47,622 nucleotides of DNA, taken from contig JAGCYN010000021.1 in NCBI GenBank assembly GCA_017960745.1, positions 1 to 47,622 on the forward strand. Reading direction: 5' to 3'. The notes under the pieces are model-generated. The model saw only the letters and a list, made by a program, of their open reading frames with translations. It searched no databases and was not told where the DNA came from. Position numbers and translations under genes: made by a program. Of this stretch, positions 8,668 to 35,714 are shown piece by piece. The DNA comes from Alphaproteobacteria bacterium. GTDB taxonomy: Bacteria > Pseudomonadota > Alphaproteobacteria > RF32 > CAG-239. Position 1 is the stretch's first letter. Each line of letters begins with the position of its first letter.

Positions 8668-8743
<76 letters not shown>

Positions 8744-11238: not shown

Positions 11239-11243
11239 TGTTT

Positions 11244-12635: not shown

Positions 12636-12647
12636 ACGCAATGAATA

Positions 12648-13058: not shown

Positions 13059-13149
13059 AAATTTTAGGAATTTAGGGTTAATAAATATAAATACTTAGTC
13101 ACTGGGGACTCTTATAACATTTATTTTTGTCTAAATCAAGCAAAAGTTT

Positions 13150-14748: not shown

Positions 14749-14760
14749 CAGTCCGCCGAA

Positions 14761-15666: not shown

Positions 15667-15684
15667 TTTCAGAGCTTTATGAGC

Positions 15685-17391
15685 CTAGTGTGTTACCGAG
15701 TGGTTGGCACAAATACGACTACGATTGGTTTCATCAACTTCAAAATTGGCAAAAGCACCGACTTTAACCGTACCGTCTTCCAATTCGCAGACATGAACGA
15801 AAACATTGTCCAGCTTGCGTTTGCAATCCACCACTTTCGCCGTAAAATCTTTTGAGGTAATCACACCGATATCGCCGACCTGACCGCCGCATTCACCGTA
15901 AAACGGCGTTTGGTTGGCCACCAACTCGAATTTACCGCTTGTAACACTCGAAACTTCCTGACCGTTCTGAACCAACGCTTTGATTTCGCCGTCAGCTTTT
16001 AATGTGTTATAGCCGAGAAATTCCGTGGCGCCGCATTTATCCTGAATGCCGTACCAAACTTTTTCAACCCCGGCATCACCCGAACCGGCCCAGTTTTTAC
16101 GGGCTTCGGCTTTTTGTCTTTCCATGCAGGCATCAAAACCCTCAACATCAACCTCGATATCCTTGCTTTTCAAGGCATCTTGCGTTAAGTCAAGCGGAAA
16201 ACCGTAGGTATCATAAAGTTTGAACGCTGTTTCGCCGCTCAATTTGGAACCTTTCGGTAAATCAGCAATTTCTTCATCCAGCAGACGCATACCTTTATCC
16301 AGCGTGCGACCGAAACGCTCTTCTTCAATGGCAATGGTTTCTTTAATTAAATTTTCGCGGGCATAAAGTTCCGGATAAGCCTCGCCCATTTCCTTTTGCA
16401 ACACCGGCAACAACTTATAAATCATCGGATCTTTAACCCCGAGCAGATAAGCATGGCGCATCGCACGACGCATAATACGGCGCAAAACATAGCCACGGCC
16501 TTCATTAGACGGCAAAACCCCGTCGGCAATCAAAAAGCAAATGGCACGCAAGTGGTCGGCAATAACGTTATGAGAGGCTTTAAGCGGACCGTTTGGATCG
16601 GTATTTGCCAAATCGGCAATTGCTTTAATAATGTGCTGAAACATATCGGTTTCAAAGTTTGAGTGAACACCTTGCAAAATTGCCGCAATACGCTCCAAAC
16701 CCATGCCGGTATCAATAGACGGACGTTTTAAATTAATGCGCGAACCGTCAGGCAAGTCTTCAAACTGGTCAAACACCAAGTTCCAAATTTCAATGTATCG
16801 GTCACCGTCTTCTTCCGGCGTTCCCGGCAGACCGCCCCACACTTCCGGACCATGGTCATAAAAAATTTCCGAACACGGACCGCACGGACCGGTATCGCCC
16901 ATCTGCCAAAAATTGTCTTTTGTTGCAATACGGATAATTCTGTCTTCCGGCAATCCGGAAACTTTTTTCCAAATATTGTGAGCCTCGTCATCGTTATGAT
17001 AAATCGTTACCGCCAATTTTTCTTTCGGCAGACAAAATTCTTTGGTTAACAGTTCCCAAGCATACGGAATGGCATAATCTTTGAAATAATCGCCGAATGA
17101 AAAATTGCCGAGCATTTCAAAAAACGTATGGTGACGAACGTCATATCCGACGCTGTCCAAGTCGTTATGTTTACCGCCGGCGCGAACACTTTTTTGGGCG
17201 GTTGTCGCTCGCGTATAATCGCGTGTTTCATTTCCGGCAAGAATATTTTTAAACTGCACCATACCGGAATTTGTGAACATCAAAGTCGGATCATTATCCG
17301 GCACCAAAGACGAAGACGGAATAACTTTATGTCCGTTCTTGGCAAAATAATCCAAAAAAGTTTTACGAATTTCATTAACGCTGACAACCAT
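15685..17391 (-). CDS. alaS: Alanine--tRNA ligase, N-terminal fragment (catalytic + tRNA-recognition domains), ending at an in-frame TAG
   Basis: [36 protein letters not shown] and other class II AlaRS motifs. It ends ...NHSVTH-TAG, inside the conserved HxxxH of the editing domain. Confidence 0.9.
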
Positions 17392-17482
17392 TGTGATCTA
17401 TCCTTAACATTGCAACTAAATTGTTATCCGCCACAAACTAGCGCAATATTAAAGCTTTGTCCAGTATAAATTGCAAAAATTT

Positions 17483-17980
17483 TTATCCAACGTAAACAAT
17501 GCCGTTCAATTCAATGACAACCCAGTTCAAATATGAGGCAAAAAACAGCCACATCAGGTAAGGAAAAAGCATTATTCCGGCGGCGCGGCGCAGTTTATAA
17601 AATATCTCCATCATCACCAAAGTCAAAACATCTAAAACGATAATGACCGCCAGACCGGCCAAAAAATGTGCACAGGCAAAAAATACATAACACCACAGTG
17701 CCTGCAGAAACATACTGCCGATAAATAAAAAATTTGCCGCTTTTAACAGCGTTTTGTTCGGTTTTTTGACCATCAAAATCAAATAAAAAGCGTTAATCAG
17801 CAAAACATACAACACGGCCCAGACAATCGGAAACACATGATTCGGCGGCGTTAAATCAGAAAGTTTAATCAAAGAATAAAAACTATCCATGCCGATATTA
17901 TTGAAATAACTCGCAAAAACGGCGGAAACAGCCACAATGATAAAACTGTATATAAAGTTCTGCATCGGTTTGGCAAACAT
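17483..17980 (-). CDS. tspO: TspO/MBR family tryptophan-rich sensory protein
   Basis: 165 aa with 5 TM helices and the PPNHVFPIVWAVLYVLL motif typical of TspO. Confidence 0.7.
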   Translation of the reverse strand: MFAKPMQNFIYSFIIVAVSAVFASYFNNIGMDSFYSLIKLSDLTPPNHVFPIVWAVLYVLLINAFYLILMVKKPNKTLLKAANFLFIGSMFLQALWCYVFFACAHFLAGLAVIIVLDVLTLVMMEIFYKLRRAAGIMLFPYLMWLFFASYLNWVVIELNGIVYVG

Positions 17981-18122
17981 TTTTTTCTCCTTTTCACAGG
18001 CTTAAAATAATAGGCAGAGCCGACTTTTCAAGAACCGATAAAGAAATAAAATTTTTGCGAAAAAAATATTGATTTTTGTCAAAAATAGCGTATGATGATA
18101 CATATTCTGAGGAGAAACCGAC

Positions 18123-20066
18123 ATGGCAAAAACAAAACAAGGCACAAAAATTGAATTTCTGGGCGGCAATAACGAATATCGCATCGGCGCCAACAGCATT
18201 TTAATCGAACACTCTGAAAACGGCGAAGAACCGAAAAGAATAATGCTTGATGTCGGCGCTTTATTTCCGCCGGATTGGGTGCATTACGATGCTGCTTTGC
18301 CGGATATGTCCTCCTATTTTCCGAATCCGTATAATCAAGTTACCGAGCCGGTTGACGGTTTGTTTATAACCCACTGCCATGAAGACCACATCGGCGCTTT
18401 GGTATATTTATCCGCCGCCAAATATGAACTGCCGAAAGAATACACCAGCGGCTTTACGCGTGATTTTATTATGTCGCAGATGCACAAAAACAATATTCCG
18501 GAAGAATTTGTGCCGGAAATTGCCACCGTTAAACAGAGTGATACCATTGCCATTGCCGATAATTTAAAGGTTTCACCGTTTAATGTCTCACACTCCACCG
18601 GCGGCGCGCTCGGCTTCCACGTTTTAACCACCGTAGACGGCAAAAACAACGCCGGCTTGGTTTTCTCCGGCGATTATCATTTGGGTAAAGTCCCGTTCGG
18701 CGAAGGGTTTGACGAAGAAGCCTATAAAGAATTTATCCGCGACAAATTCGTTTCGCACATTTTTGTGGATTCCACCTCGGCAACCATGTCTGCCGATAAT
18801 GTCGTCACCTTTGACCAAGCAGTTGCAAACACTGTCAGAGAGTTGGAAAAACACAAAGAAAAACAAGTTTTCTCGGCTGTTATTGCCCGCAGTGTACAAA
18901 ATTTGGCCATTGACCTGAAGGCGGCCAAAGATACCGGACGCACGGTGTTGATTGCCGGTGCCGGCTTAAAACAAACCTTCAACATCTTGCAAAAACGCGT
19001 CAAAGACAATGATCCGAAAGTTTTGGAAATTTTCGGCATCGAAGACGGGCAGCGCTTTAATTTCGAAGATTTTGTTTATAAAGCTTCCGATGTTGAAAGA
19101 GCCGACCCACAGGCTTATTTAAGCAAATATCCGCCGGAACAGCGCTATATGATTATCAGCGGCGCTTTTGCCGAAGATAAAGAAGGCCGCAAATCTTGTT
19201 TGGTGTTGATGAGCGAGCAAAACAAAGCCACCGTTGACGCCAAAGGCAAAGTCAAAGGCAAAGGACAAAGCGGTCATCCGGTGTTTACGGTTGATAACAA
19301 TACGCTGTTTATGTTGCGTCAACGCCCGATTGAATCGATTAACGGCGATAAGCACCGCGCTCTGGTTTCAAGACTGCAGGCGCTGGGCTCAACGGTTGTT
19401 TTAAACGGCGATACCTTAGATACGAAATATCAGCGTACCGGCCATGCCAATAAAGCGGAAACCGAAAAATTTATCCGTTTAACAATTGAAAACTGCGCCA
19501 ACAGCAAGGAATTGCTGTCCGGCAAGCAACCGCTTTATATTGTTGCCATTCACGGTGATGCCGAGCAACTGAAAGCCAATGAAGAAAACTTCAAAAGAGA
19601 ACCGGCAAAAACCATGTTTTGTTTGAACACCGATCAAATTATGATTACGCCGGATAAGTGCGAAAAAATTGCCGGCAAATCGTTTGACGAACAACAGTGG
19701 ATTTGCATTGAAGCGCACAGTATGCGCGGATACGGCGCCAATGATATCTTCATTTTTGATATGTGCGACAAACATTTTATCAAGCAAGATAATTTGTTTA
19801 CGATTGTAAATGTCAGCGTTAAAGCCAATCGCAAGGCCGAAAAAGAAAACAACTATCGCATCAATAAAGCCATCGAAAAGGCCAAAGAGCTTGAAGAACA
19901 GGGAATTTCCGCTTCAAATATTGAAATTCGGCGTCAGGTTCGCGGCGATAAAAAAGGCGCGAAAATTGACCGTTATACGTATGAAGAAATTAAAAATCTG
20001 CGTGACAGCAAGCCGAAATCAAAAAGTAAAGCGCGCTATAAACGTGGCGGTCGCGAAGAATACTAA
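18123..20066 (+). CDS. rnj: Ribonuclease J-like metallo-beta-lactamase-fold RNase with a long Lys-rich C-terminal extension
   Basis: HxHxDH motif THCHEDHIGA, N-terminal FLGGNNEYRIGANSILIE resembling RNase J, and a beta-CASP-like middle. It is 647 aa and divergent. Confidence 0.65.
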   Translation: MAKTKQGTKIEFLGGNNEYRIGANSILIEHSENGEEPKRIMLDVGALFPPDWVHYDAALPDMSSYFPNPYNQVTEPVDGLFITHCHEDHIGALVYLSAAKYELPKEYTSGFTRDFIMSQMHKNNIPEEFVPEIATVKQSDTIAIADNLKVSPFNVSHSTGGALGFHVLTTVDGKNNAGLVFSGDYHLGKVPFGEGFDEEAYKEFIRDKFVSHIFVDSTSATMSADNVVTFDQAVANTVRELEKHKEKQVFSAVIARSVQNLAIDLKAAKDTGRTVLIAGAGLKQTFNILQKRVKDNDPKVLEIFGIEDGQRFNFEDFVYKASDVERADPQAYLSKYPPEQRYMIISGAFAEDKEGRKSCLVLMSEQNKATVDAKGKVKGKGQSGHPVFTVDNNTLFMLRQRPIESINGDKHRALVSRLQALGSTVVLNGDTLDTKYQRTGHANKAETEKFIRLTIENCANSKELLSGKQPLYIVAIHGDAEQLKANEENFKREPAKTMFCLNTDQIMITPDKCEKIAGKSFDEQQWICIEAHSMRGYGANDIFIFDMCDKHFIKQDNLFTIVNVSVKANRKAEKENNYRINKAIEKAKELEEQGISASNIEIRRQVRGDKKGAKIDRYTYEEIKNLRDSKPKSKSKARYKRGGREEY

Positions 20067-21787: not shown

Positions 21788-21864
21788 CGGGGTGTAGCTC
21801 AGCCTGGTAGAGCGCTTGGTTTGGGACCAAGATGTCGCGTGTTCGAATCTCGTCGCCCCGACCA
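21788..21864 (+). tRNA. tRNA-Pro (anticodon TGG)
   Basis: Hand-folded: acceptor CGGGGTG/CGCCCCG, D arm GCTC-AGCCTGGTA-GAGC, anticodon arm CTTGG-TTTGGGA-CCAAG, T loop TTCGAAT, encoded CCA. One U52:U62 mismatch in the T stem. Confidence 0.85.
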
Positions 21865-22032: not shown

Positions 22033-22051
22033 AATCTCGTCGCCCCGACCA
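22033..22051 (+). repeat. att-like direct repeat of the 3' end of tRNA-Pro
   Basis: AATCTCGTCGCCCCGACCA at 22033-22051 is identical to 21846-21864 (T-loop end through CCA). The flanking bases differ. Confidence 0.85.
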
Positions 22052-22888: not shown

Positions 22889-24688
22889 TTAATGAATATT
22901 CTTTTTACTTTCAATATCTTCTGTCACCTTTTGTTTTGCTGCCAATACACCGTTTATATATCTTTGATAAACTTCCGGATAGCGCTCTGCGACAATCGGC
23001 AACTGTTCGGCAAATCCATTAATATAGCGGAACCGTTTGCCACTTTTCATCATTTTTAATGCCGCATCCACACGCTCTTTCTCCGGATTGGTTTCAACGC
23101 GCATATTGTCGCCAATCATCATTTTTTGACGCGTTTCATTATTGTAAACCGGCCAAGCATATTTTTCAGTAGACGGATCACCGGTTTTTGCAAAATTGGC
23201 TATCATTTTTTGAAATTCCAATGCCAAGTCTACTTCTTCTTTAGTCCCTTTCACATCAACTCCGTCAAATGTTCCGAACATATAGTAGCAGTCTATTGCG
23301 TGCGCTGCTCCTAAATATTCAGGATAATCATATTTCTTTTCAAAAGTATAACTGTAGCTGATGCCGCCGTTTTTAGCGTGTTCTAATGCCTGATAGGTAT
23401 TACCGATGGAAAGTGTTTTATCGTCCATATAACGGCTGGTAATTTCTTTACCGGAATAACCTAAGTTTTTCAATGCTTCTTTATATTGAGACAAATCCGT
23501 TTTAAATTCTTCTGTTTCCAGACTTTCATCCGTATCCATCCACACCTGACAAACGGCATCAAACATCTCTTCATCACCTAAAAAAACAGCTTGAAAATAA
23601 CGGAATTCATCAGCAGTATGCCCTTGCATAATGATTAAATCTTTACTCATACCATCTTCCCAAAGTTTGAAAGGATCATTTGGTATAATTTTGCCGTCAC
23701 GCACAATCAAGCTGTATAAATCTATTGCATTTTGATCCCAATACTTTTGAATTGTTTTGAAATCAATTTGCTGTAAATCTTTGACTGTTTTTGCTCCAAA
23801 TTCTTTTTTAAGAGCTTCTGGCAGGGCTAAAGTTTCTTCCATATCATTTCCCTGATTAACCGATCCGCTCATCGGGATAGCTTTTTGGAAAAGACCTTTT
23901 GCCTCCGGTAAAGTGCAAAGCGTTGAAACAGCTCCTCCGCCGGCTGATTCACCGGCAATCGTAATATTATTCGGATCACCGCCGAAAGCTGCAATATTTT
24001 CTTTAATCCATTTAAGTGATTGAACTAAATCAAAAATACTGTTATTGATTGATGTTTCATATTCTTTACCGTCAGGAAATTCGGAAAGATTCATTATTCC
24101 CATCATGCCCATACGATAGGTAACCGTAACTAATATCACATCAGGGTTGTGTTGAGCAAAAAACTGTCCGTTGTAAAGCGGGTCGGCAGTTCCGCCTTGC
24201 AGCCAACCACCCCCGTGAATAAACACCAGAACCGGTTTTTCTTTTGCGCCATTAACATTCTTCCAGACATTCAAATTTAAGCAAGCCTCGCTTTGTTCGT
24301 AAAGTGACGATCTTTCACCTGTTGGATCAATAGGTTGCATGCATGACGGTCCGAAGTAATACGCTTCATAGACCTTATCCGATGCTTCGGGATCTGTTGC
24401 CTTCTTAAAGCGTTTATCACCAACGGGTTGTGTTGCAAAAGGAATACCCTTCCATGCAATAACATCATCTTGTTTTCTGCCGACAAAAATGCCGTTCTTA
24501 CAATCAGCCGCCAAACTCTTATCATATTCACCGGTTATTTCTAAATTGGGATGATATTCCTCTATCTGGTTGATTTCTTGCCATTGTGCTTGCGTTTTAT
24601 AAGGAGAAACAGCACTATATCCGCAAGGAACATAACCGCCAATTCCTAACAATAAAGCAATTACACCTGAAATAGTTAATTTTGACAT
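22889..24688 (-). CDS. Secreted carboxylesterase, type B (COesterase family)
   Basis: Signal peptide, oxyanion HGGGW, and nucleophile elbow GESAGGG within ITIAGESAGGGAVS. 599 aa. Confidence 0.85.
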   Translation of the reverse strand: MSKLTISGVIALLLGIGGYVPCGYSAVSPYKTQAQWQEINQIEEYHPNLEITGEYDKSLAADCKNGIFVGRKQDDVIAWKGIPFATQPVGDKRFKKATDPEASDKVYEAYYFGPSCMQPIDPTGERSSLYEQSEACLNLNVWKNVNGAKEKPVLVFIHGGGWLQGGTADPLYNGQFFAQHNPDVILVTVTYRMGMMGIMNLSEFPDGKEYETSINNSIFDLVQSLKWIKENIAAFGGDPNNITIAGESAGGGAVSTLCTLPEAKGLFQKAIPMSGSVNQGNDMEETLALPEALKKEFGAKTVKDLQQIDFKTIQKYWDQNAIDLYSLIVRDGKIIPNDPFKLWEDGMSKDLIIMQGHTADEFRYFQAVFLGDEEMFDAVCQVWMDTDESLETEEFKTDLSQYKEALKNLGYSGKEITSRYMDDKTLSIGNTYQALEHAKNGGISYSYTFEKKYDYPEYLGAAHAIDCYYMFGTFDGVDVKGTKEEVDLALEFQKMIANFAKTGDPSTEKYAWPVYNNETRQKMMIGDNMRVETNPEKERVDAALKMMKSGKRFRYINGFAEQLPIVAERYPEVYQRYINGVLAAKQKVTEDIESKKNIH

Positions 24689-24839: not shown

Positions 24840-25880
24840 ATGAAACTTTTAACTACAACTGTTTTGGTTGTTGGATTGTGCTTTGGCATTATTACAGAAT
24901 CTAATGCTTGTTCACGTGTAACATATACCTCCGAAGATGGGAGTGTTGTTACCGGTCGTACAATGGACTGGTTCAAACCGGATGATGTGAAATTAAATTT
25001 ATTTCCTAAAGGAATAGAATATTCCGGTTTAGGTAGCAACCCGCTTAAATGGACTTCAAAATATGCAAGTTTGGCAGTTACCAGTTATGGTTTTGTAAAC
25101 TCCGGTATTAATGAAGAAAATTTAGCTGTTGATGTTTTATATTTGGAAGCATCCAATTATGGTGATTTACAGCCTGAAGAAAAGACAATAACCTCTGAAA
25201 TGGTAACACGTTTCCTATTGGATAATTTTTCATCTGCTCAAGAAGTAGCAGATTATTTCGAAAATGAAAAATTTCGTGTTGTTTTAGATGAAGAAAGAGC
25301 CAAACTTTTAGGCGCCCCTATAACCATTCACTATATTGTAACGGATAAAACAGGTGATAATGTTATTATTGAATATATTGACGGCAAAGTAAAAATACAC
25401 CATCAAAAGGGACGAATTGTTTTTACCAACGATCCGGAATATGATAAAATGCTTGCTATAAAAGACTATTTTAAGGAGGCGGGAATTGAAGGAGGCATGC
25501 CGGGTTCATCATTATCGCAAGCCCGCTTTGTATATTTAACAGGATGGTTGGATCAGATGGTTAACACTCCAATACCGGAAATTACAAAAGAAATTCCGGA
25601 ATATACATTTGCCGATCAAACATCAGCTATGATACTTTCCTTAATGCGCGGTGTTTCTACACCGTATGGAATAGTTTTTGACACAGAACACTTAAATAAT
25701 ACATCAACTTTGTGGCGCACTGTATCTGATGTAAAAAATGGTGTGTTTTATTTTGACTCTTCCTTATTACCTTTAACATTTAAGGTTGATTTGAATCAGG
25801 TTGATTTTACTAAGCCTAAGGTTGTAAGTCCTTATAAAGACCATATTCCTCAGGGTGATATTACAGATTTGTTTAAATAA
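24840..25880 (+). CDS. Secreted Ntn hydrolase, choloylglycine hydrolase / linear amide C-N hydrolase family
   Basis: The signal peptide ends ...ESNA|CSRVTY, exposing the N-terminal nucleophile Cys. The family motif GRTMDW follows. SD GGTGGGAAAATG. Confidence 0.8.
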   Translation: MKLLTTTVLVVGLCFGIITESNACSRVTYTSEDGSVVTGRTMDWFKPDDVKLNLFPKGIEYSGLGSNPLKWTSKYASLAVTSYGFVNSGINEENLAVDVLYLEASNYGDLQPEEKTITSEMVTRFLLDNFSSAQEVADYFENEKFRVVLDEERAKLLGAPITIHYIVTDKTGDNVIIEYIDGKVKIHHQKGRIVFTNDPEYDKMLAIKDYFKEAGIEGGMPGSSLSQARFVYLTGWLDQMVNTPIPEITKEIPEYTFADQTSAMILSLMRGVSTPYGIVFDTEHLNNTSTLWRTVSDVKNGVFYFDSSLLPLTFKVDLNQVDFTKPKVVSPYKDHIPQGDITDLFK

Positions 25881-26075: not shown

Positions 26076-26294
26076 TTAAGCACAAAACAAGATAAAAAAT
26101 ATTACAATCGTTATCAATATTAAAAAATAAATCAATGTCTGCCACAGAAGACGTTTTCCGAAACTTAAAGTTTTATTTTTATAAAAACGATTTATCAGCG
26201 GATTGCCCAAAATATAGGTTAATACAAATGATATAACGGCAAATATCCGAAAGTTATATCTTAATGTTTCTTTGTTTTTTAAATAAAACTCCAA
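26076..26294 (-). CDS. Small membrane protein (72 aa)
   Basis: Two predicted TM helices. Overlaps the upstream small ORF by 16 nt. No family recognised. Confidence 0.4.
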   Translation of the reverse strand: MEFYLKNKETLRYNFRIFAVISFVLTYILGNPLINRFYKNKTLSFGKRLLWQTLIYFLILITIVIFFILFCA

Positions 26295-26419
26295 ATCATC
26301 TCTTCAAAAGGAGTATTTTCCAGAAAAGCAAAGAACAAACCTATCGTTAGTGTAACGATTATAATCCAGTATATCCAAAATTTTGCGACATTAATCAATT
26401 TACTTCCGAACTTAGGCAT
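26279..26419 (-). CDS. Small membrane protein (46 aa)
   Basis: MPKFGSKLINVAKFWIYWIIIVTLTIGLFFAF with SD AAGGA 7 nt upstream. The longer form in the ORF track lacks an SD. Confidence 0.4.
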   Translation of the reverse strand: MPKFGSKLINVAKFWIYWIIIVTLTIGLFFAFLENTPFEEMIWSFI

Positions 26420-26438
26420 TTCAAATCCTTTCGTGCTC

Positions 26439-26951
26439 TTATCTTGATGACATATATTCATAAAACGAAACGCTGTAATCATCCGTATCCGGTGCATTTA
26501 GAGATGAGTACCCAAAATCTGCAACAGCAATACAATAAGCCAATATAAAAGCATATATTAACTTTCGGTATGGTACTAAAATATCGGATTGCCATACAAA
26601 AATCATCATTGCGTACGTTATGCATCGGAATAGTAACAGTAAACAAATGGAGAAAATTAGTTTCCAAATAAATGGTAACGTGAACGGAATAAGAAAAATT
26701 AACAATATTTCTATTTCAAACATAGCCCAAGCCAAGAAAATTATAATCGGCAATTTCCAAGTTAGAGTAATTTTTTTTATTTTCTGATTGTCTTTACCGA
26801 ACCAAATTTTCCAGATTAAATAAGGAACGATAAAACTTACATATAAAGCCGGAACAACATATAAAAGAATAGCGAAAAACAAAGGGAAAGGAATTGTTGA
26901 AATTAACAACAGAATGGTTTTGATGAGTTTTGATTTTTCTACTTTTGCCAT
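26439..26951 (-). CDS. Polytopic membrane protein (170 aa)
   Basis: About 5 TM helices. The start is set at MAKVEKSK because the longer ORF form (to 27032) would contain the terminator hairpin at 26990-27023. Confidence 0.5.
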   Translation of the reverse strand: MAKVEKSKLIKTILLLISTIPFPLFFAILLYVVPALYVSFIVPYLIWKIWFGKDNQKIKKITLTWKLPIIIFLAWAMFEIEILLIFLIPFTLPFIWKLIFSICLLLLFRCITYAMMIFVWQSDILVPYRKLIYAFILAYCIAVADFGYSSLNAPDTDDYSVSFYEYMSSR

Positions 26952-26989: not shown

Positions 26990-27023
26990 TATAATAAAAA
27001 GAGCCGAATGTCAATCGGCTCTT
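26990..27023 (-). terminator. Rho-independent terminator after the SAA-like / Cys-rich gene pair
   Basis: Perfect 9-bp stem AAGAGCCGA / TCGGCTCTT with a 7-nt loop, followed on the minus strand by TTTTTATTATATTTT. Confidence 0.7.
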
Positions 27024-27057: not shown

Positions 27058-27444
27058 TTATTTTTCACAGCTTTTAGGATAAATCCAATCTTCACCGAGT
27101 TTATGACATTTATCCAATGTAAATTCCGTATCACATTCTCCAGTCTTTTTATTTAGCGGCAAGTTATTATTTAAGCAAATTTCGTTAAAAACTTCTTTAG
27201 CCACACAACCTGCTTGTTTATAACGACATTTTTTGAAAAGTTCTATTTGGTCATCTGTCAACTTAATGCAACCGTTAATTTTGTTCCAGGCTAAACAATC
27301 TTCACGGCAACGATTTTCGTTGTAATCCCAAACATTACCCTCATCCAAACAGCCATTTTGTTCTAAAAAAACAAAATACTTCCAACTACCAAATAACAGA
27401 ACTGCTAAAATGATACAAATTTTAATTACTTTTGAATAATGCAT
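27058..27444 (-). CDS. Small exported or membrane-anchored Cys-rich protein (128 aa, 10 Cys)
   Basis: N-terminal hydrophobic helix KVIKICIILAVLLFGSW followed by a Cys-rich domain. SD GGAG precedes the ATG, which lies 11 nt after the stop of the SAA-like gene. Confidence 0.6.
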   Translation of the reverse strand: MHYSKVIKICIILAVLLFGSWKYFVFLEQNGCLDEGNVWDYNENRCREDCLAWNKINGCIKLTDDQIELFKKCRYKQAGCVAKEVFNEICLNNNLPLNKKTGECDTEFTLDKCHKLGEDWIYPKSCEK

Positions 27445-27455: not shown

Positions 27456-28286
27456 TTACCAATATTTCTTAGGAAAAGCCGGATTTTTATTGCGATAATC
27501 TGCACAAGCATCTTGTGCATTACGATATACTCCGGAATTTCCTCGTAATCGTCCTGTCGCATTTACACGCAAATCATAAAATCTATCTTTTTGGGCTTCA
27601 TCCTCATCTAATCCCTTATAGTACTGGTTCCAATAAAAGTCAAATTTTTCTTTTGCATCTCCCAAGGCCTTGGCAGTGTTATAACCATAAGGTCCTCGTG
27701 CTGCCGCATTGAAATTTGCTTTACAATGATGATAATCATCCAAATTTTTATAACCATGATTTTTCATTTTAAAATACTCGGATGCCATATCCATTGTACC
27801 CCCGACAATTTGATGAATTGGAGATTGTTGATTTGTTGTTTGCAATGTATCTACATTTTGATTACTCAAACCGCTTGTGTTGTTATTCTGAAAATAACTG
27901 CTTGGTTTGCCGACTAGGCTTTCGGTATTGACGGTATAATCGGAATTTGCAAAAGCTTGACCATTATTTGTACCATTACCAAATCCGCTGTTGTTCAACT
28001 GATTTGTAACGTTTTGAATATTTTGGCTTATGTTTGAAGTGCCGAAGCCGTAGTTATTTTCCGGCGAACCACCCCAAAAATTTGTGCCATACTGCGGGTA
28101 GTTTTCTTCCGCTATTCCTTGCTTGGCAAAAACTTCCGCCAGTTGATTTTCTCTGGCCAATCGCGCGCTTTGATATTCCAATTCATCACGTGTTGAAAAT
28201 CCGCTGTGGTCAACCCCATAACTGTCAACTCCGCCGTTGCCGGATTGATAGCCGGTTAATTTTTTGATTTCATCCCATATATCCAT
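27456..28286 (-). CDS. Protein with an N-terminal Q/N/G-rich low-complexity region and a C-terminal serum amyloid A (SAA)-like domain
   Basis: aa 163-276 align without gaps to vertebrate SAA: DDYHHCKANFNAAARGPYGYNTAKALGDAKE versus [31 protein letters not shown], and the C-terminus NPAFPKKYW versus RPAGLPEKY. Strong SD AAGAGGAGAA. Confidence 0.8.
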   Translation of the reverse strand: MDIWDEIKKLTGYQSGNGGVDSYGVDHSGFSTRDELEYQSARLARENQLAEVFAKQGIAEENYPQYGTNFWGGSPENNYGFGTSNISQNIQNVTNQLNNSGFGNGTNNGQAFANSDYTVNTESLVGKPSSYFQNNNTSGLSNQNVDTLQTTNQQSPIHQIVGGTMDMASEYFKMKNHGYKNLDDYHHCKANFNAAARGPYGYNTAKALGDAKEKFDFYWNQYYKGLDEDEAQKDRFYDLRVNATGRLRGNSGVYRNAQDACADYRNKNPAFPKKYW

Positions 28287-28385
28287 GGTATTCTCCTCTT
28301 AAAAGTTTTAATTACTATTCTGATTAAAACTCTAACAGAAGAAAAACGGCTTGTATATGCCCTATAGCTTGCTAACGTTGTAACT

Positions 28386-28847
28386 TTAGCCAAGCAAAAG
28401 CTTTTTAAATTCGCGATTATTTTGTTGTGCCAACTGTCTTAATTTGTTCTTTTTGTTATGTTCTACATAAGGAATTTGCATTTCTTTTACTTTATTTGCT
28501 AAATACCATTCAACAAAACTGTTTGCCGTCAGTTTGATACCGATTTGTAGCGCTTCCTTGTATTTTTCTTTTTGAATTTCCGCAAATTTCTTTCTGAATT
28601 GCGCATATTTTTTATCACGAACAACTGCGCCCCTATGCGCTTTCTCTCTGTGATGAGTTTTAATTACGGCATCCATCGTTGTTGCATGAAGCTTGCCCCA
28701 GTCTTCTCTTGCTTCTTTGAGCAATTCTACCGCCCAAGATAAAATCTGCTGTTGAAACTCCCTGTTTTGATGTAAATATTCGTTATGCAAACACATTGCA
28801 TTGAATTGGCGCAACGCCTTAAAAGGTATAATTTCTTTGTAATCCAT
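28386..28847 (-). CDS. Hypothetical helical protein (153 aa)
   Basis: ORF with SD AAAGGAG upstream of MDYKEIIPF. No family recognised. Confidence 0.5.
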   Translation of the reverse strand: MDYKEIIPFKALRQFNAMCLHNEYLHQNREFQQQILSWAVELLKEAREDWGKLHATTMDAVIKTHHREKAHRGAVVRDKKYAQFRKKFAEIQKEKYKEALQIGIKLTANSFVEWYLANKVKEMQIPYVEHNKKNKLRQLAQQNNREFKKLLLG

Positions 28848-29015
28848 CTTTGCTCCTTTCAAAATAAGAAATATATTATATAATTAGGAAGCAAAATTCC
28901 AAAACACAAGTGTCATGCTAGCTTAGACAATAAAATCTGCGACGTTGTGTGAAAATTTTTGAATCGGTTTGCAATTTTACTTCAGTGCTTTTATGTTTGA
29001 AAACAAGAGGTAGTT

Positions 29016-30236: not shown

Positions 30237-30581
30237 TTAAAACATTCCGCCGTTCCAGCCCCAGAGGTCAGCCGGATGGTAGGTTACGTAAACATTTGCG
30301 CCGTCAATACCGTAATCACTTTGCAAAATGTCACAAATCTCGCCGGTTAAGCCCTGACACGCCGATTTTGATGCCGATCCCAACAGTCGGATGGCGATAT
30401 AAGCACCTTTTTCGAGCTTTCGCTCTGCCATATACAGCGACTTATCGTCCTCAATGTTCGCCATAATATAAGCCTTCGGCTTGCCAAACGCGGCCGATAC
30501 GGCTCCGGTCAGCTTCTTTTGCAGGTCATCTTTCTGGCTTGCGTCCAGTTTAATACTCATTTTTGCTTCAATGTACGGCAT
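30237..30581 (-). CDS. MIF / phenylpyruvate tautomerase family protein
   Basis: 114 aa beginning MP (Pro1). FGKPKAYIMANI versus MIF TGKPPQYIAVHV. C-terminal WGWNGGMF versus MIF VGWNNSTF. Confidence 0.7.
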   Translation of the reverse strand: MPYIEAKMSIKLDASQKDDLQKKLTGAVSAAFGKPKAYIMANIEDDKSLYMAERKLEKGAYIAIRLLGSASKSACQGLTGEICDILQSDYGIDGANVYVTYHPADLWGWNGGMF

Positions 30582-31826: not shown

Positions 31827-32126
31827 TTAATTGCAATAAACCGCAAAACTTTCTGGCGCATAAATTCCCATGGTCAAACCACCCATCAAGGAGTCATAAA
31901 AAGTCCAATGCGCATCGATGGCTTTAACGCCTCTTACCGGGCATAAATGAGCGACATCATAATCTGTTTTTTGCCACATTCCCCACAAGAAGAAATGACT
32001 TCTGCCTTCATATGTCGGTTCGGTATTTATACTTGATTGCTGACTGAGATTAAAACGAATAATATGATCACTGCCGCAAGCAGACAGCATTAAAACAAGA
32101 CCAACACAAATCAAAAGTTTTTTCAT
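31827..32126 (-). CDS. bor: Bor/Iss-family outer-membrane lipoprotein
   Basis: 99 aa with lipobox LSAC. SHFFLWGMWQ and GIYAPESFAVYC align with lambda Bor HHFFVSGIGQ and GIYTPLEARVYC. Same length as Bor (97 aa). Confidence 0.75.
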   Translation of the reverse strand: MKKLLICVGLVLMLSACGSDHIIRFNLSQQSSINTEPTYEGRSHFFLWGMWQKTDYDVAHLCPVRGVKAIDAHWTFYDSLMGGLTMGIYAPESFAVYCN

Positions 32127-32212: not shown

Positions 32213-35200
32213 TTAAAAATTAAGCCTTAAACCCGCATTAAATTCATATGTTGTTCTGACATGACCGCCGGTTGTGGTTTCTGCCTCGCCATACACGGAT
32301 AAATTTTGATGAATATTCCATGTACCGCCGAGAGCAAATTCACCCCATGTGCCACCCAAATCTTCCCGATATTGACGGCTGGTCAGACCTTTGCTGACAA
32401 CAATTTTAGAATCACCTTTCCAATCATTTAAGACGGACGCTCGGACATAAACGCTGCCTTTTTTATCCGCAGACACCCAACCCGTCGCAATACCTAAACG
32501 GCCGACGGCACTTTTGACATCAGACTGTTTTACTTTGACGCCGCTGTCGGTAACATAGTCCGCACCATCCACATATCCGTATAAAAACTCTGTTTGCGGT
32601 TCTACGTAAAAATTCGTTCTGCCGACACCCAAGCGCCACCCGTATTCCACGGAAGCGGAATTTCCCGACGTGCTGTAACGACCGTGAGAATGATTGCCGT
32701 TTGCATTAAAACCGTAATCAGATTTCAAATGATGATGCTTCAACGTAATATCCACAAACTGCCCGTCTGCACCGAGCCAACCGCCGTAAAGCCCGTATGA
32801 ATAATTTTTATCGTCGGCTTTACCGATTTTGAGTTTTCCTTTGCCGTCGGTGTGCGAACCCATTAAACCGGCAAAGAAATTACCGAAACGATGGTCAATA
32901 CCGAATTGGAATGTTTTATAATCATTATGCAAACCCTTATATTTGCTTTGACCGGCAATAAATTTTGCCCATGCACCGCTTTCGCCCGGCATATCACGCA
33001 AATCACCCATACGCTTTTCAAGATCATTCATTTGCGCACGGAACACCTGAAAGCCGACGGAAGTAATTTTTTGCAGCGCATCAACCAAAGTATTTTTCTT
33101 TTCGTTGGCGGCAACAAGCTTCCCGTTAGGGTTAACAACAGCGTTAATTTCACCGCTGATTTCACCTTCGGCAATGTGCAAATTTAAATCCGAAGATGTT
33201 TGATTGTTGTTAATGGTTAAAATTTGTGCGCCCTGTTGAACCATTTGTTCCGTCGAATCACTTTGCAACTGATTTGCCAGATTGCTATCCAAATTCAACA
33301 CCAGATTTGAATCGTTTGTACCGGCATAAGTATCAATGGTAATCTGGTCTTTTTGAATTTTATCGGTTCTGAATTCCGCGTTTCCGGAATTTTGTAAAGT
33401 GTTGATTTCAATCGTACCGGTACCGGCATCAACGTTAAGATTGGCCTGCTTATGAACCGTTAAGTCATCAAACTGCGCCGTACCGTCCGCGGTTTTAACA
33501 ACTATGTTGCTCATTCCGCCGGCCGAAACCTTTCCGTTACCGACAAAATTGACCGCCGCTACATTACCGTTTGACAGCGCAAGTTCGGTATTTTCTTCCG
33601 TTTGCAAGGTATTCACATCAGCATTTCCGCCGTAAGTCAGCTTACCGCCGACAAGCAAAACATCAAAACCGTCAGCACTTATAATATTTCCGGCGTAACT
33701 CATTTCAAAATCCGGATCAGCATCTTCTGTGGCATTTCCCTCATCATCGGGCTCAAAACCAAAAGTCAGAAGCGTTCTGTCAGCTTCTTCTTCCGGTTTA
33801 AACAATGTCATCCCGTTACCGTAATTTCCGTAACGATTACCGGCGGAAGACCAATCGGATATAATATCACCGCTGATTTGCGCGCCGTTTAAAATGTTGA
33901 TTTCTCTGACCAACGCATTATCCGAAATATAAATTGCGGACTTACTGCCGGCAACACGACCGCTGATATCTACCTGCGCCGCCAAAGGTCCGTTGATTGC
34001 GTCAACCGTTCCGTCTTCATCAACATCGGTCCATTGGCCCGTTTCATCGTCTTTTTTAACCTGAAAATAAGAACCGCGATATTCATTTTGGTCGCCCAAG
34101 AGATTACCGCCAAAATCAAAACGCAAGGCATCGCCGCCCGAACCCATAGCCTCAACGACACCCTGAATATTCAAAACATGACTGTTACCGTAAGAAACCA
34201 ATACACCGATATTATCCTTGCCGTTGGCTTGAACCGCAACACCGTCCGGAACAATCAATGTATTTTCTTGACCGTCAATGCGAACACCGTAGGCCGCTTC
34301 GCCGCGTGTTTTAATATCGGCCGCCTGCGTTACGGTATTGTTATTTCCGTAAAGATGCAACCCTATGCCCCAATTTTGGTCACTGTCAAAACCGTTATCG
34401 TTTGTATAGGTCAGCCAATTGTTATAAATGGAAAAACCGAAAAACCGGCGTCGGTCAATATTGGTAAAACCGATATCCTGCAAAACGGCAAGTTCCGCTT
34501 CCATGAAAGTTCCCCAATTTCGATAATCCTGATGGCTCATCATGCTGTTTTGCAATTCCAAATGGCTCATTTCCGGAATCTCGACAAGTTGATCATCGTC
34601 ATCATAATCAAGCTCATAACCGTTCACGGGAATACCCTTCACCGTCAAACCGTCCAAATCTCCGTCAGGAAGCGCCAATTCGGTTGTTTGACCGTCAACC
34701 GTCAAAACCTCTTCAACATTATCGCCCCAAAAATAAGCACCGCTTTGCGAGCCGTTGTTATACTGATAAAAGCTGTCTTCATCCGGGTCGTCAACCGGAC
34801 CTTTTTCAAAAATCATGCCGGGTAGTAACTGTTGATCATAGATATCATAGAGATGGCTGCTGAATACCGAATTGTTCGGCGTTGCATAAAAAAAGGTGTC
34901 GCCGTCATCATCTTCATCATCATCAACCGAAGTGGAAATTCCCAAACCGTGCATCATTTCATGAATAATAACGGAAGACATTGCCGCACCTTCACCCTTG
35001 TTTGCCAACGAATATAAGAAATCGCCGTCTTTGTCGCCCATTTCGCCGACGTTCAAAATGCCGGTCGGTAATTGCCTATTTTTATCTTGGTCCATAAACC
35101 ATGTGCTTAAACGAGTGCCGGATATACCTTCAATTGTGCCGCTGGTGGCAGATTCAAACGAGGCGTTTTCTTCCGTATCGGCTAATGTTTCAATAACCGG

Positions 35201-35509
35201 CGCTTCCGACGGAACACCGAAAACATCTTTAATATAGCGCATTGCACCTCGGACATTGGTTAAATCCTGATCGCTGAAAGAGCGGGTAACTTCACAACTG
35301 TCGCCCTCAGAACTGTTCAAATCTTCCGCGGAAAATTCAATTTCTTGCCCCTTATCATAAATACGCAGAACAACCATTTCATCGCCGTCAACCGCAATCG
35401 GCTGTTCTTTATAGGTGTATTCGTCCGGATTAAACGCCAATGCCGCCGAAATATAGAAATTAAAAATAAAAATTGCCGATAAAGTTCTTTTTAACAATAC
35501 CTTTGTCAT
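32213..35509 (-). CDS. Autotransporter with a zincin (HExxH) metalloprotease-like passenger
   Basis: Signal peptide MTKVLLKRTLSAIFIFNFYISAALA. HEMMH at 34949-34963, acidic runs and a repetitive beta-helix-like passenger. The C-terminal beta-barrel ends ...YEFNAGLRLNF. The start is set at the ATG with SD GAGG; the ORF track extends it to 35626. Confidence 0.8.
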   Translation of the reverse strand: MTKVLLKRTLSAIFIFNFYISAALAFNPDEYTYKEQPIAVDGDEMVVLRIYDKGQEIEFSAEDLNSSEGDSCEVTRSFSDQDLTNVRGAMRYIKDVFGVPSEAPVIETLADTEENASFESATSGTIEGISGTRLSTWFMDQDKNRQLPTGILNVGEMGDKDGDFLYSLANKGEGAAMSSVIIHEMMHGLGISTSVDDDEDDDGDTFFYATPNNSVFSSHLYDIYDQQLLPGMIFEKGPVDDPDEDSFYQYNNGSQSGAYFWGDNVEEVLTVDGQTTELALPDGDLDGLTVKGIPVNGYELDYDDDDQLVEIPEMSHLELQNSMMSHQDYRNWGTFMEAELAVLQDIGFTNIDRRRFFGFSIYNNWLTYTNDNGFDSDQNWGIGLHLYGNNNTVTQAADIKTRGEAAYGVRIDGQENTLIVPDGVAVQANGKDNIGVLVSYGNSHVLNIQGVVEAMGSGGDALRFDFGGNLLGDQNEYRGSYFQVKKDDETGQWTDVDEDGTVDAINGPLAAQVDISGRVAGSKSAIYISDNALVREINILNGAQISGDIISDWSSAGNRYGNYGNGMTLFKPEEEADRTLLTFGFEPDDEGNATEDADPDFEMSYAGNIISADGFDVLLVGGKLTYGGNADVNTLQTEENTELALSNGNVAAVNFVGNGKVSAGGMSNIVVKTADGTAQFDDLTVHKQANLNVDAGTGTIEINTLQNSGNAEFRTDKIQKDQITIDTYAGTNDSNLVLNLDSNLANQLQSDSTEQMVQQGAQILTINNNQTSSDLNLHIAEGEISGEINAVVNPNGKLVAANEKKNTLVDALQKITSVGFQVFRAQMNDLEKRMGDLRDMPGESGAWAKFIAGQSKYKGLHNDYKTFQFGIDHRFGNFFAGLMGSHTDGKGKLKIGKADDKNYSYGLYGGWLGADGQFVDITLKHHHLKSDYGFNANGNHSHGRYSTSGNSASVEYGWRLGVGRTNFYVEPQTEFLYGYVDGADYVTDSGVKVKQSDVKSAVGRLGIATGWVSADKKGSVYVRASVLNDWKGDSKIVVSKGLTSRQYREDLGGTWGEFALGGTWNIHQNLSVYGEAETTTGGHVRTTYEFNAGLRLNF

Positions 35510-35714
35510 AATCAACCTCGCATTGATGTGCCATAACAGCGGTTTATTTTCGGTGTGATTGTATGAAATTTCATTTGAAAAAGCAAGATTTTTACAACAT
35601 TCACGCATATACACTAAGCAAAACATAGCGTTGCGGGGTGAAAATGCCCCGCAATTTTTTTATGCTTTGCTTTTATTGCAAATATGTGTTAAATTAACAC
35701 CGGAGAGGATACCT

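Follow-up and report, generated by a model that had tools for sequence, protein, structure and literature searches.

Serum amyloid A (SAA) is a vertebrate acute-phase protein, and the finding of its domain in a gut bacterium raises the question of what the domain does there and where it came from. We addressed this question at a locus in a stretch of 47,622 nucleotides of alphaproteobacterial DNA (contig JAGCYN010000021.1 of assembly GCA_017960745.1; hereafter the window), where an earlier note had read a bacterial SAA-domain protein at 27459-27800. This interval is the C-terminal part of an ORF, here called the effector (Table 1), which encodes a true SAA domain. The profile PF00277 (SAA) was observed to match residues 157-257 over profile positions 4-96 of 102 with an E-value of 3.9e-15 and 56.5 bits, the curated cutoff being 30.8 bits. 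On searching the PDB sequences with phmmer, SAA chains were the sole significant matches of the effector (mouse SAA2 6dso, 1.6e-8; mouse SAA3 4q5g, 9e-8; human SAA1 4ip8, 1.2e-6); several of the SAA entries among these matches are fibril structures. The note had estimated about 21 identities in 51 positions with human SAA1, and BLAST against that sequence gave 21 identical residues out of 57 for effector residues 157-213, ungapped, with E = 2e-10. The likeness it had pointed out at the C-terminus also holds, as seen in the pairs DLRVNATGR/DQAANEWGR and FPKKYW/LPEKY.

The AlphaFold model of the domain (pLDDT ~90) has helices at residues 156-176, 183-195, 199-222 and 228-251, and a short fifth one at 257-266. 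The top seven Foldseek matches of the model were all SAA1 or SAA3 structures with a probability of 1.00 and a target TM of 0.68-0.80, and the four-helix cone with its short fifth helix is superposable on solved SAA structures. The profile search and the comparison of a model with the SAA helical bundle were the two tests that the note had itself set for its reading, and both came out in its favour.

Table 1. Coordinates of the features described, numbered from the first letter of the window.
Feature	Coordinates	Strand	Remarks
Effector ORF	27456..28286	-	276 aa; stop codon 27456-27458
Conserved N-terminal module, effector residues 1-102, presumed trafficking/delivery domain	27981..28286	-	Common to proteins with other cargo; pI 4.4
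Disordered N/T/S/G/Q-rich linker, effector residues 103-151	27834..27980	-	pLDDT 29-40; composition
SAA (Prok-SAA, Lipocone) toxin domain (predicted activity), effector residues 152-276	27459..27833	-	PF00277, fold, conserved positions
Putative cognate immunity gene, 128 aa, TM anchor and putative periplasmic domain	27058..27444	-	10 invariant Cys; linkage to SAA
c1, upstream gene; product basic (pI 9.9), helical, 153-158 aa; probable regulator	28386..28862	-	Likely true start ATG 28847
c1-effector spacer, 99 nt: stem-loop just past the c1 stop codon, T-run, AGGAG ribosome-binding site	28287..28385	-	
Terminator-like hairpin and T-run just past the immunity gene	26999..27023	-	Consensus scan
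Putative orphan immunity-type gene, multi-TM, 170 aa	26439..26951	-	Mechanical ORF to 27032 (197 aa)

Within the SAA domain, D183, Y185, H187, D238, N242 and G245 are invariant among 45 family members, and E213 is kept in at least 90% of them. H187 lies in helix 2, E213 in helix 3, and D238, N242, G245 and R246 in helix 4, where a motif of the sNxxGR type reads V241-N-A-T-G-R246. The active site proposed for this superfamily by Burroughs, Nicastro & Aravind (eLife 2025, PMC12419801; here and below, the parts of that paper available to us) comprises a His in helix 2, a Glu in helix 3, an Asp in helix 4 and the sNxxGR motif of helix 4. The positions proposed there are conserved in the effector, for which catalysis is thereby predicted, and their invariance points to an enzyme.

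The same paper has already reported Prok-SAA toxins together with their immunity proteins, and regards bacterial SAA domains as ancestors, not copies, of animal SAA, with a role as toxin warheads (PMC12419801). One protein of its Prok-SAA list, MBP5215000.1, is identical to the effector's SAA domain at 110 of 111 residues (99%). We compared the domain with the published Prok-SAA and Met-SAA sets, combined, and all of its 20 best BLAST matches were found to be bacterial, while the animal SAAs formed a separate group with an identity of 37.5% or less over full-length (>=90-residue) alignments. In a neighbour-joining tree of these sets, drawn without bootstrap, the domain falls deep within a bacterial clade of sequences from rumen and gut MAGs. 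Nesting in a bacterial clade and the low identity to animal SAAs thus give no sign of a recent acquisition from a host, and a recent transfer from a host is rejected on the BLAST ranking and the tree.

These results also bear on the proposal that the protein is directed at the host, i.e. that it is a secreted SAA look-alike which engages host SAA receptors, retinol or HDL, or disturbs SAA signalling. The similarity to vertebrate SAA1, SAA2 and SAA3 is true in sequence as well as in fold, and the habitat of the organism is the animal gut or rumen. However, the domain is nested among bacterial relatives and carries a bacterial-type insertion between helices 3 and 4, and no hydrophobic signal peptide was found on the effector by hydropathy. 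The maximum Kyte-Doolittle average over 15 residues is -0.33 within its first 40 residues, consistent with the remark in the note that no obvious Sec signal is present.

The region ahead of the SAA domain was described in the note as 160 aa of Q/N/G-rich, prion-like sequence. This description stands for residues ~103-151, the low-complexity linker, which differs in length and sequence between family members; it does not stand for residues 1-100, which contain 20-25 invariant positions, many of them other than Q or N, and are predicted to be folded (AlphaFold pLDDT 78-89). The second hypothesis of the note, an amyloid or prion-like structural or membrane-active protein whose N-terminus aggregates and whose SAA part forms fibrils, therefore appears to us scarcely credible. 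Vertebrate SAA can form amyloid, fibril structures occur among the PDB matches, and the N/T/S/G/Q-rich residues 103-151 are predicted to be disordered, but a variable linker of this kind is usual between the modules of polymorphic toxins, and it follows a conserved, folded module. The invariance of the proposed catalytic residues points instead to an enzyme, and an amyloid would leave the linkage to an immunity gene, described below, unexplained.

Relatives of the N-terminal module (N-module) were found in 224 clusters at E <= 0.001 on a phmmer search of 1.84 billion representatives, all belonging to the same narrow family. Throughout the best 150 of these clusters the module is at or near the N-terminus, and no protein among them exceeds 602 aa, a length that leaves no room for a large trafficking domain as fusion partner. 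The module occurs at 273 places in the GTDB species genomes, in rumen and gut Alphaproteobacteria, and is 80-99% identical in proteins with other C-termini. The cargo in 54 N-module proteins scanned was, besides SAA, Tlde1 in ten, GH108 in eight, YkuD in three and SLT in one, with around 30 of the 54 left without a Pfam assignment; every recognisable cargo is of a periplasm-acting kind, those other than SAA attack peptidoglycan, and none was recognised as acting in the cytoplasm. At one related locus (L095; L-numbers denote the related loci) a pesticin-type lysozyme ORF was found directly 3' of N-module matches. When only the C-terminal regions were clustered, at least 12 cargo clusters were obtained on the module, whereas clustering from residue 100, or from about 30 residues past the end of the module, gave one or a few large clusters on account of the shared linker. 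Tandem arrays of N-module effectors are present in L001, L036, L075 and other loci, as are 5'-truncated orphan effector copies among the related loci; within the window neither module of the effector has a second copy. This bacterial group uses the ~100-aa N-module as the shared carrier of many different putative toxins.

The N-module itself gave no match in Pfam, NCBIfam or PHROGs and no fold match in the PDB or BFVD. For neither the N-module nor c1 did Pfam, NCBIfam, PHROGs or PDB folds yield an already described trafficking domain, and this possibility was rejected. A double-glycine leader peptide was likewise rejected by eye, as the spacing of hydrophobic residues is unfit and the conservation spans 100 aa.

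The gene that follows the effector starts 11 nt past its stop codon. Its family comprises 33 clusters, and wherever the source is given it lies in the same bacterial group; the ten invariant cysteines are C32, C46, C50, C59, C73, C80, C90, C104, C113 and C126. The AlphaFold model (pLDDT 90.6) has a helix at residues 2-34 and strands at 38-40, 45-47, 50-54 and 58-61, followed by helices, and gave no fold match in the PDB. Being membrane-anchored and disulfide-rich, the protein is presumably periplasmic. We observed a homolog of this gene after SAA cargo in at least eight independent contexts (the window/L003, L001, L087, L088/89, L095/96, L075, L063/74 and L023), and the identities to the window pair, given as SAA/Imm in per cent, were 90/87, 81/75, 68/68.5, 67/66, 52/37 and 40/39. 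The gene was also found 3' of an SAA domain without the N-module in L088 and of a 3' SAA fragment in L023, orphan copies are present in L085/86 and L090-94, and at one chromosomal site the effector has been exchanged while the immunity gene was retained. Where the N-module carries another cargo, the gene that follows encodes a different small protein, TM or lipoprotein-like. A factor directed at the host would have no use for a dedicated periplasmic immunity gene that co-varies with it, and SAA is one of at least 12 interchangeable cargos of which the identifiable others attack peptidoglycan. Together with the bacterial placement of the domain, this interbacterial logic of the genomic context makes the note's proposal of host mimicry or interference, in our opinion, very improbable.

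Beyond the immunity gene lies a multi-TM gene whose family (cluster 3) is represented in 10 loci. In L090/91 (68% identity) and L001 (52%) a homolog is the next gene after an N-module effector that bears another cargo, and L023 shows a repeated order of SAA fragment, Imm and a remnant of the multi-TM (TM197-family) gene. No matching effector adjoins the gene within the window, and by its relatives it is a putative orphan immunity gene, directed at some other toxin that uses the same carrier. The hairpin between the two genes has a 9-bp stem with five G-C pairs followed by TTTATTATAT, and is a pattern match of the consensus scan only. On the other side of the effector, in 15 of the 18 loci with a homolog of c1 (ORF cluster 1), this gene precedes an N-module effector by 56-133 nt, and the same arrangement was seen in 31 related loci overall. 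When 15 such c1-effector spacers were aligned, they proved partly conserved and of near-constant length. In longer members of the c1 family an HTH_19/HTH_25 domain is found at the N-terminus (E = 3e-6 to 9e-6), while the copy in the window has no Pfam, NCBIfam or PHROG match; c1 is probably a regulator. A genomic island bounded by tRNA-Pro was considered and rejected, as only a 19-nt repeat 187 nt away was seen, and no repeat was found to bound the 22-29 kb low-GC stretch.

A cargo that can be exchanged on a shared N-module, an immunity gene immediately downstream whose membrane-anchored product co-varies with it, orphan copies of immunity genes and effectors in tandem together follow the logic of an interbacterial toxin. 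We consider it probable that the locus is a polymorphic toxin-immunity cassette, in which an SAA/Lipocone toxin acts in the periplasm of the target, probably against lipid-linked precursors of the cell wall. The features that mark polymorphic toxins are found here in the conserved N-terminus with variable C-termini, the toxin-specific immunity gene downstream, and the orphans and arrays; no known domain for trafficking or secretion, such as PAAR, Rhs, LXG, MuF or a signal peptide, was found alongside them. In an uncultured Alphaproteobacterium of the rumen or gut, c1, as a putative regulator, the effector and the immunity gene would be transcribed as one unit up to the terminator. The effector would consist of the N-module carrier (~100 aa), the disordered linker (~50 aa) and the C-terminal SAA-fold toxin, and this toxin would act in the periplasm of a competitor. 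There, by analogy with TelC, it may cleave a phosphate-linked head group from a lipid carrier, for instance lipid II, and wall synthesis would stop as a result. The immunity protein would block the toxin at the periplasmic face of the inner membrane of the producer or its siblings. Action on lipid head groups is predicted for the superfamily by analogy with TelC and PTDSS1/2 (PMC12419801), and by the same analogy lipid II is a candidate target of the SAA toxin.

An enzyme of this fold could also be directed at the producer itself, remodelling its lipid-linked LPS or peptidoglycan intermediates with the Cys-rich protein as partner or regulator. Many Lipocone families take part in membrane-lipid, LPS or exopolysaccharide biogenesis (PMC12419801), and in L087 the pair sits inside a bamA-lpxD-fabZ-lpxA-lpxI-lpxB cluster, between fabZ and lpxA. 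It is found as well, however, at unrelated chromosomal sites, in a prophage and adjoining integrase or resolvase genes, and the lpx position in L087 is therefore better taken as an insertion. The effector also has neither a signal peptide nor a TM segment with which to reach its own periplasm, its carrier is common to lysozymes and Tlde1-type toxins, and orphan immunity genes, truncated orphan toxins and effector swapping are hallmarks of conflict systems. On these grounds we hold a self-directed enzyme to be improbable.

Another explanation links the proteins to phages: the N-module would tether its lytic or toxic cargo to a virion or tailocin, or the proteins would have a part in the lysis or entry of a prophage. 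The array of effectors in L001, and in a similar way those in L015 and L027, comes directly after a prophage late region, which in L001 encodes a major head protein (phrog_9953, E = 1e-107), a tail protein, a Peptidase_S74 fibre protein and an endolysin. The GH108, SLT and lysozyme cargos resemble endolysin domains, and phage-head (MuF) delivery is listed for some Prok-SAA toxins (PMC12419801). Against this, no confirmed N-module match was found in 2.9 million IMG/VR contigs, the effector and c1 have no PHROG match, no BFVD fold match was found, and the single INPHARED match is an UNVERIFIED contig of 5 kb that shows only c1 and an effector; on these results the N-module as a phage or virion component was rejected. 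Phage genes were observed near only three of ~80 loci, the flanks being mostly housekeeping, and no phage structural genes lie beside the cassette in the window. The position of the array behind the endolysin gene of L001 is that of moron-type cargo, which explains the three phage-adjacent cases, and a phage-linked role is on balance improbable.

The export and import of the effector count against the reading as a toxin-immunity cassette: neither a secretion apparatus within ~3-10 kb of ~90 related loci nor a T6SS gene in their flanks or in the window was found. The neighbours in our Pfam sweeps (116 and then 10 neighbour-cluster representatives) were housekeeping genes and unknowns, the sweep of 116 covering the top 25 families, below which single T6SS matches could be hidden. 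Two Hcp probes, of low weight, gave no match in 866 kb. The route we favour, short of calling it probable, is release in the style of colicin M or pesticin followed by receptor-mediated import through the outer membrane. Transport as the cargo of a T6SS, or of some comparable machine whose genes lie elsewhere, is possible if doubtful, and some other route takes up the rest.

Colicin M/Cmi and pesticin/Pim are bacteriocins of the Enterobacteriaceae; colicin M has 271 aa, and both colicin M and pesticin place an N-terminal uptake part before a C-terminal toxin that acts in the periplasm, with no signal peptide. The toxins are a lipid II-cleaving enzyme or a muramidase, countered by a small immunity protein anchored in the inner membrane and facing the periplasm. 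The effector resembles them in size, in lacking a signal peptide, in module order, in immunity topology and in the pesticin-type lysozyme among the cargos. In T6SS cargo effectors, the N-terminus carries marker domains such as MIX, FIX and RIX. Like these, the present family combines a short conserved N-terminal marker with diverse C-terminal toxins, and its genes lie scattered as orphan pairs of effector and immunity gene, several to a genome and frequently on mobile elements; unlike them, it has no recognised cytoplasm-acting cargo and no T6SS gene near the ~90 loci. The invariant D26-H-S-G-F30 of the N-module resembles the TolB box DG[ST]GW (PMC2821528), a likeness found post hoc that about 1% of shuffles match by chance. 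No homology of the effector to colicin M, pesticin or known colicin uptake domains was detected in Pfam, and the N-module is predicted to be folded, whereas classical colicin translocation domains are disordered. We advance only as a tentative and rather unlikely proposal that the N-module is a previously undescribed, self-sufficient delivery domain peculiar to rumen and gut Alphaproteobacteria, which would be colicin-like and possibly Tol-dependent, take only periplasm-acting cargo through the outer membrane of a competitor, be released by lysis (that of a prophage included) and have c1 as its dedicated regulator.

That a gut bacterium encodes the domain of a vertebrate acute-phase protein is real, and it has already been explained (PMC12419801). 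The locus is probably a toxin of bacterium against bacterium with its antidote gene, of a class published in 2025, and the finding is not new; the delivery route is the only element that is possibly new. What the locus adds is a small, tractable two-gene example, a 276-aa effector with a 128-aa immunity protein and clear comparative evidence for their pairing, and a carrier module that Alphaproteobacteria of the rumen and gut possess in abundance. If this pair does cleave lipid II or another lipid head group, the result would bear directly on the long-unsettled biochemical function of human SAA, and an uncultured gut lineage would have yielded a new set of narrow-spectrum toxins against the cell wall. 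Were the N-module indeed colicin-like, the SAA fold would here have given rise to a bacteriocin of the colicin M type, compact and soluble at 276 aa, and to an unusually tractable system in which to ask whether SAA-fold proteins, the human one included, are lipid-head-group enzymes.

In vertebrates, SAA is an apolipoprotein of ~104 aa that stands alone and is secreted by means of a signal peptide. Its members SAA1, SAA2 and SAA3 share with the effector a homologous domain and fold and the positions D-x-Y-x-H and D-x3-N-x2-G-R. Unlike them, the effector has 276 aa, a carrier module, no signal peptide and an immunity gene, and its insertion between helices 3 and 4 is nine residues long; it is neither a standalone secreted protein of that size nor placed among the animal SAAs, as a vertebrate-type apolipoprotein would be. 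TelC of Streptococcus intermedius, which with TipC is the only biochemically characterised Lipocone toxin, belongs to the same superfamily; its toxicity is confined to the outside of the cytoplasm, where an immunity protein associated with the membrane counters it. TelC is a distant relative from a different Lipocone clade, delivered by a Gram-positive T7SS via an LXG domain (PMC12419801). We detected no direct sequence similarity between TelC and the effector. Imm-SAA, encoded next to a Prok-SAA or Min-Wnt toxin, is described as having a TM anchor, an alpha-helix, four beta-strands and four absolutely conserved cysteines (PMC12419801). The 128-aa protein is like it, by description only, in the helix, the four strands and C32, C46, C50 and C59, and has ten invariant cysteines against the four. 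The context table of that paper includes 'TM+Imm-SAA' and, for Prok-SAA, T6SS (PAAR), MuF and PGBD fusions (PMC12419801). As far as the available parts of the paper describe them, the Prok-SAA/Imm-SAA systems are without the ~100-aa N-module, the range of at least 12 cargo types, the linkage to c1 and the restriction to rumen and gut Alphaproteobacteria seen here, and they share with the effector the domain family, the pattern of the proposed active site and the NxxGR motif.

We propose that the effector gene and its downstream neighbour would form an interbacterial toxin-immunity cassette, with the serum amyloid A (SAA) domain of the effector as the toxin warhead. On Pfam analysis, residues 157-257 of the effector matched PF00277 (SAA) over profile positions 4-96 of 102; the score of 56.5 bits (E = 3.9e-15) lies well above the curated cutoff of 30.8 bits. 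When all PDB sequences were searched using phmmer, serum amyloid A chains were the only significant matches (mouse SAA2, 1.6e-8; mouse SAA3, 9e-8; human SAA1, 1.2e-6). BLAST against human SAA1 gave 21 identities in 57 ungapped positions, and the C-terminal motifs that the earlier note had likened to SAA1 aligned as well. In the AlphaFold2 model, built from 45 homologs, the SAA region (residues 156-266) is predicted to form four long helices followed by a short one, with pLDDT ~90. Its seven top Foldseek matches in PDB were exclusively SAA3/SAA1 crystal structures (probability 1.00, target-normalised TM 0.68-0.80), and beyond these nothing in PDB exceeded a probability of 0.25. Since both the PF00277 search and the fold comparison upheld it, the SAA domain proposed in the earlier note is genuine. 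H187, D238, N242 and G245 are invariant in the effector's SAA family, E213 is kept in at least 90% of sequences, and in the model each of the five lies in its expected helix. Domains of the same SAA clade also occur on five or more other N-termini, and one of these carries a PG_binding_1 domain.

Burroughs, Nicastro and Aravind (eLife 2025; PMC12419801) unite animal SAA (Met-SAA) and bacterial Prok-SAA in the Lipocone superfamily and conclude that the SAA of animals came from bacteria. They propose that the active site is made up of a His in helix 2, a Glu in helix 3 and an Asp in helix 4, together with an sNxxGR motif, and predict that phosphate-linked lipid head groups are cleaved or exchanged, as shown for TelC on lipid II. 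One entry of the published Prok-SAA list, MBP5215000.1, has a 111-residue domain that differs from that of the window at 1 position. The possibility of host-SAA mimicry had been raised earlier. The 20 best matches of the window's domain in the combined published Prok-SAA and Met-SAA set are all bacterial, and a neighbour-joining tree without support values nests it within a clade of sequences from rumen and gut MAGs, with the animal SAAs apart in two separate groups. At the sequence level these results give host mimicry by recent transfer no support, and it was rejected.

Homologs of the effector fell into two classes: some share the whole protein or the SAA part only, whereas in others the similarity (80-99% identity) is confined to residues 1 to ~100-140 and the C-termini are unrelated. 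Residues 1-100 (the N-module) hold 20-25 invariant positions, with the consensus MD..GY..G..G.DSYGVDHSGFS.RDELEYQ.AR..REN.L...QGI..ENYPQ.GTNFWG..NNYGFG.SNI, and are predicted to be folded (pLDDT 78-89). Only residues 103-151 form an N/T/S/G/Q-rich linker (pLDDT ~30). Thus, of the prion-like N-terminus described previously, the low complexity holds for the linker but not for the conserved, predicted folded module, and a prion-like protein was rejected; a signal peptide is absent, in line with the lack of an obvious Sec signal remarked on in the earlier note. Among 1.84 billion representative proteins, phmmer found N-module relatives in 224 clusters at E <= 0.001, and in the best 150 of these it is N-terminal or nearly so, in proteins no longer than 602 aa. 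Scanning one genome per GTDB species located it at 273 places, of which the best 80 are almost all in uncultured rumen or gut Alphaproteobacteria, where a single genome often has several; at many loci the genes stand in tandem arrays that include 5'-truncated copies. Searches of Pfam, NCBIfam and PHROGs and of PDB and BFVD folds gave no match to the module, IMG/VR contigs gave no confirmed one, and it is absent from the Prok-SAA contexts (T6SS with PAAR, MuF, PGBD) given in the accessible part of PMC12419801.

In a Pfam scan of 54 proteins with the N-module, the cargo was Tlde1 in 10, GH108 in 8 (4 of these also with PG_binding_3), YkuD in 3, SAA in 2 and SLT in 1, while about 30 had no recognisable C-terminal domain. 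By sequence, at least 12 cargo clusters stand behind the module, and all cargos that can be recognised attack peptidoglycan from the periplasm. In the related locus L095, a pesticin-type lysozyme ORF immediately following N-module matches is probably a further cargo, split by frameshift. Two such ORFs lie there in tandem, each with N-module matches directly 5' and a convergent 144-aa gene after it, at the site that also carries the SAA cassette, which lies downstream of both; they are probably frameshifted effectors. A carrier held in common, with exchangeable warheads, arrays and orphan copies, is the signature of polymorphic toxins.

The Imm gene, which starts 11 nt past the effector stop codon, encodes a protein with a strongly hydrophobic N-terminal helix and 10 invariant cysteines. 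Its AlphaFold model (pLDDT 90.6) has a TM helix, four short strands and then helices, and a fold search of PDB found no similar solved structure. The immunity partner described in PMC12419801 is TM-anchored, with a helix, four strands and four conserved cysteines; the toxin domain is already known from that work and so, judged by description, is the immunity type. The Imm family comprises 33 clusters, and its source-named members all come from the same bacterial group. An Imm homolog was found directly 3' of an SAA-type effector in the window and on L003, its twin contig, in an array inside a prophage (L001), and in L088/89, L095/96, L075, L063/74 and L023. In L087 the pair is a cassette inserted between fabZ and lpxA, in a bamA-lpxD-fabZ-lpxA-lpxI-lpxB cluster that is standard in all else. 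Compared with the window pair, SAA and Imm lose identity in parallel (L088/89, 90% and 87%; L001, 81% and 75%; L095/96, 68% and 68.5%; L087, 67% and 66%; L075, 52% and 37%; L063/74, 40% and 39%). Imm has the behaviour of a cognate immunity gene.

A single site in the chromosome, with CoA-transferase and L33 genes on its borders, occurs in two versions: c1 - SAA effector - Imm - 129 - 71 - 95 (L095/96) and Tlde1 effector - 118 - Imm - 129 - 91 - 95 (L085/86), the Tlde1 effector having the same N-module. Here the effector has been swapped and the SAA-type immunity gene left as an orphan; further Imm orphans were found close to genes for integrase and resolvase. The gene next after Imm in the window encodes a multi-TM protein whose family follows other-cargo effectors in L090/91 and L001. 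Since it has no partner effector in the window, it is an orphan immunity gene. Two small TM-rich ORFs 3' of it may be additional ones.

Features of the window and of two related loci
Feature	Position	Strand	Remarks
1590-aa ORF	59-4831	minus	no Pfam match at E <= 1e-4
Alanyl-tRNA synthetase gene	14761-17391	minus	split by in-frame TAG
tRNA-Pro, final 19 nt	21846-21864
Repeat of these 19 nt	22033-22051
Low-GC stretch	about 22 to 28.9 kb		G+C 0.32-0.38
Carboxylesterase-family protein	22889-24688	minus	COesterase, E = 2e-91
Choloylglycine-hydrolase-family protein	24840-25880	plus	bile-salt-hydrolase-like
Two TM-rich ORFs	26076-26497	minus	72 aa each
Multi-TM protein gene	26439..26951		mechanical ORF to 27032
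Imm gene	27058..27444	minus	128 aa
Effector ORF	27456..28286	minus	276 aa
D-H-S-G-F motif	28197-28211		effector residues 26-30
c1-effector spacer	28287-28385
c1	28386..28862		basic helical protein, 153-158 aa; 5' of effector
MIF/tautomerase-domain ORF	30237-30581	minus
Lambda_Bor-like small protein	31827-32126	minus
Autotransporter	32213-35626	minus	1137 aa
L001, prophage late region	1-9989
L001, effector array	10001-18896
L095, tandem lysozyme ORFs	1040-3671

In the window, and likewise in 15 of 18 loci from c1's ORF cluster, c1 precedes the effector at a near-constant distance of ~100 nt; c1 homologs occur in 31 of the related loci. Longer members of its family carry an N-terminal HTH_19/HTH_25 domain, which favours a regulatory role for c1 over one as secretion adaptor. 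The spacer, partly conserved and near-constant in length across its equivalents in 14 loci, has a stem-loop behind the stop codon of c1, then a T-run and a ribosome-binding site (AGGAG), and may be a regulatory element. A terminator-like hairpin lies 3' of the Imm gene. The cassette region has 32-38% G+C against 41-49% in the rest of the window, and it lies downstream of a tRNA-Pro gene among ordinary genes. The end of this tRNA gene is exactly repeated 187 nt downstream, like an att scar of an integration or excision event. The carboxylesterase and choloylglycine-hydrolase genes share the low-GC stretch with the cassette, and contig L003 has the same arrangement. The MIF/tautomerase-domain, Lambda_Bor-like and autotransporter genes adjoin; a further 6 loci (cluster 9) likewise have an autotransporter close to N-module effectors. 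Elsewhere, the TAG inside a conserved motif of the alanyl-tRNA synthetase gene leaves a 568-aa ORF (tRNA-synt_2c) and a 301-aa ORF (tRNA_SAD + DHHA1), which could reflect an assembly error, a pseudogene or read-through.

The flanks of ~90 related loci contained housekeeping genes, other small TM/Cys-rich proteins and, now and then, mobile-element or prophage genes, with no recurrent secretion apparatus. In L001, an array of at least five N-module effector genes or fragments with their immunity genes, and with a tail-collar fibre gene inside it, comes directly after the late region of a prophage, which encodes a major head protein (phrog_9953, E = 1e-107), a tail protein, a Peptidase_S74 fibre protein and an endolysin. 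The prophage link in L001, L015 and L027 is best explained by cargo (a 'moron') behind the endolysin gene. The N-module as a phage component was rejected, its sole phage-database hit being an unverified 5-kb contig with c1 and effector only.

How the effector is delivered can be stated only tentatively. A colicin-M/pesticin-like route is possible, if somewhat short of an even chance: all recognisable cargo acts in the periplasm only, the effector has no signal peptide and no apparatus nearby, c1 is regulator-like, and the cassette sometimes adjoins phage lysis genes. The invariant D-H-S-G-F of the N-module also resembles the colicin TolB box, DG[ST]GW (PMC2821528). However, this likeness was seen post hoc and arises in ~1% of composition-preserving shuffles, and the N-module is predicted to be folded, in contrast to classical colicin translocation domains. 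The scattered, multi-copy effector-immunity pairs would instead suit T6SS cargo, and T6SS association is reported for Tlde1 and some Prok-SAA toxins; we consider this rather unlikely. The N-module would then be analogous to MIX, FIX and RIX, the marker domains of T6SS cargo effectors. Some other route takes the remaining probability.

What may still be new is the carrier module, not previously described, and its delivery route, and the cassette offers a compact system to test whether SAA-fold proteins are enzymes. The locus itself represents a kind of interbacterial toxin-immunity cassette published in 2025, and a near-identical domain is present in that dataset.
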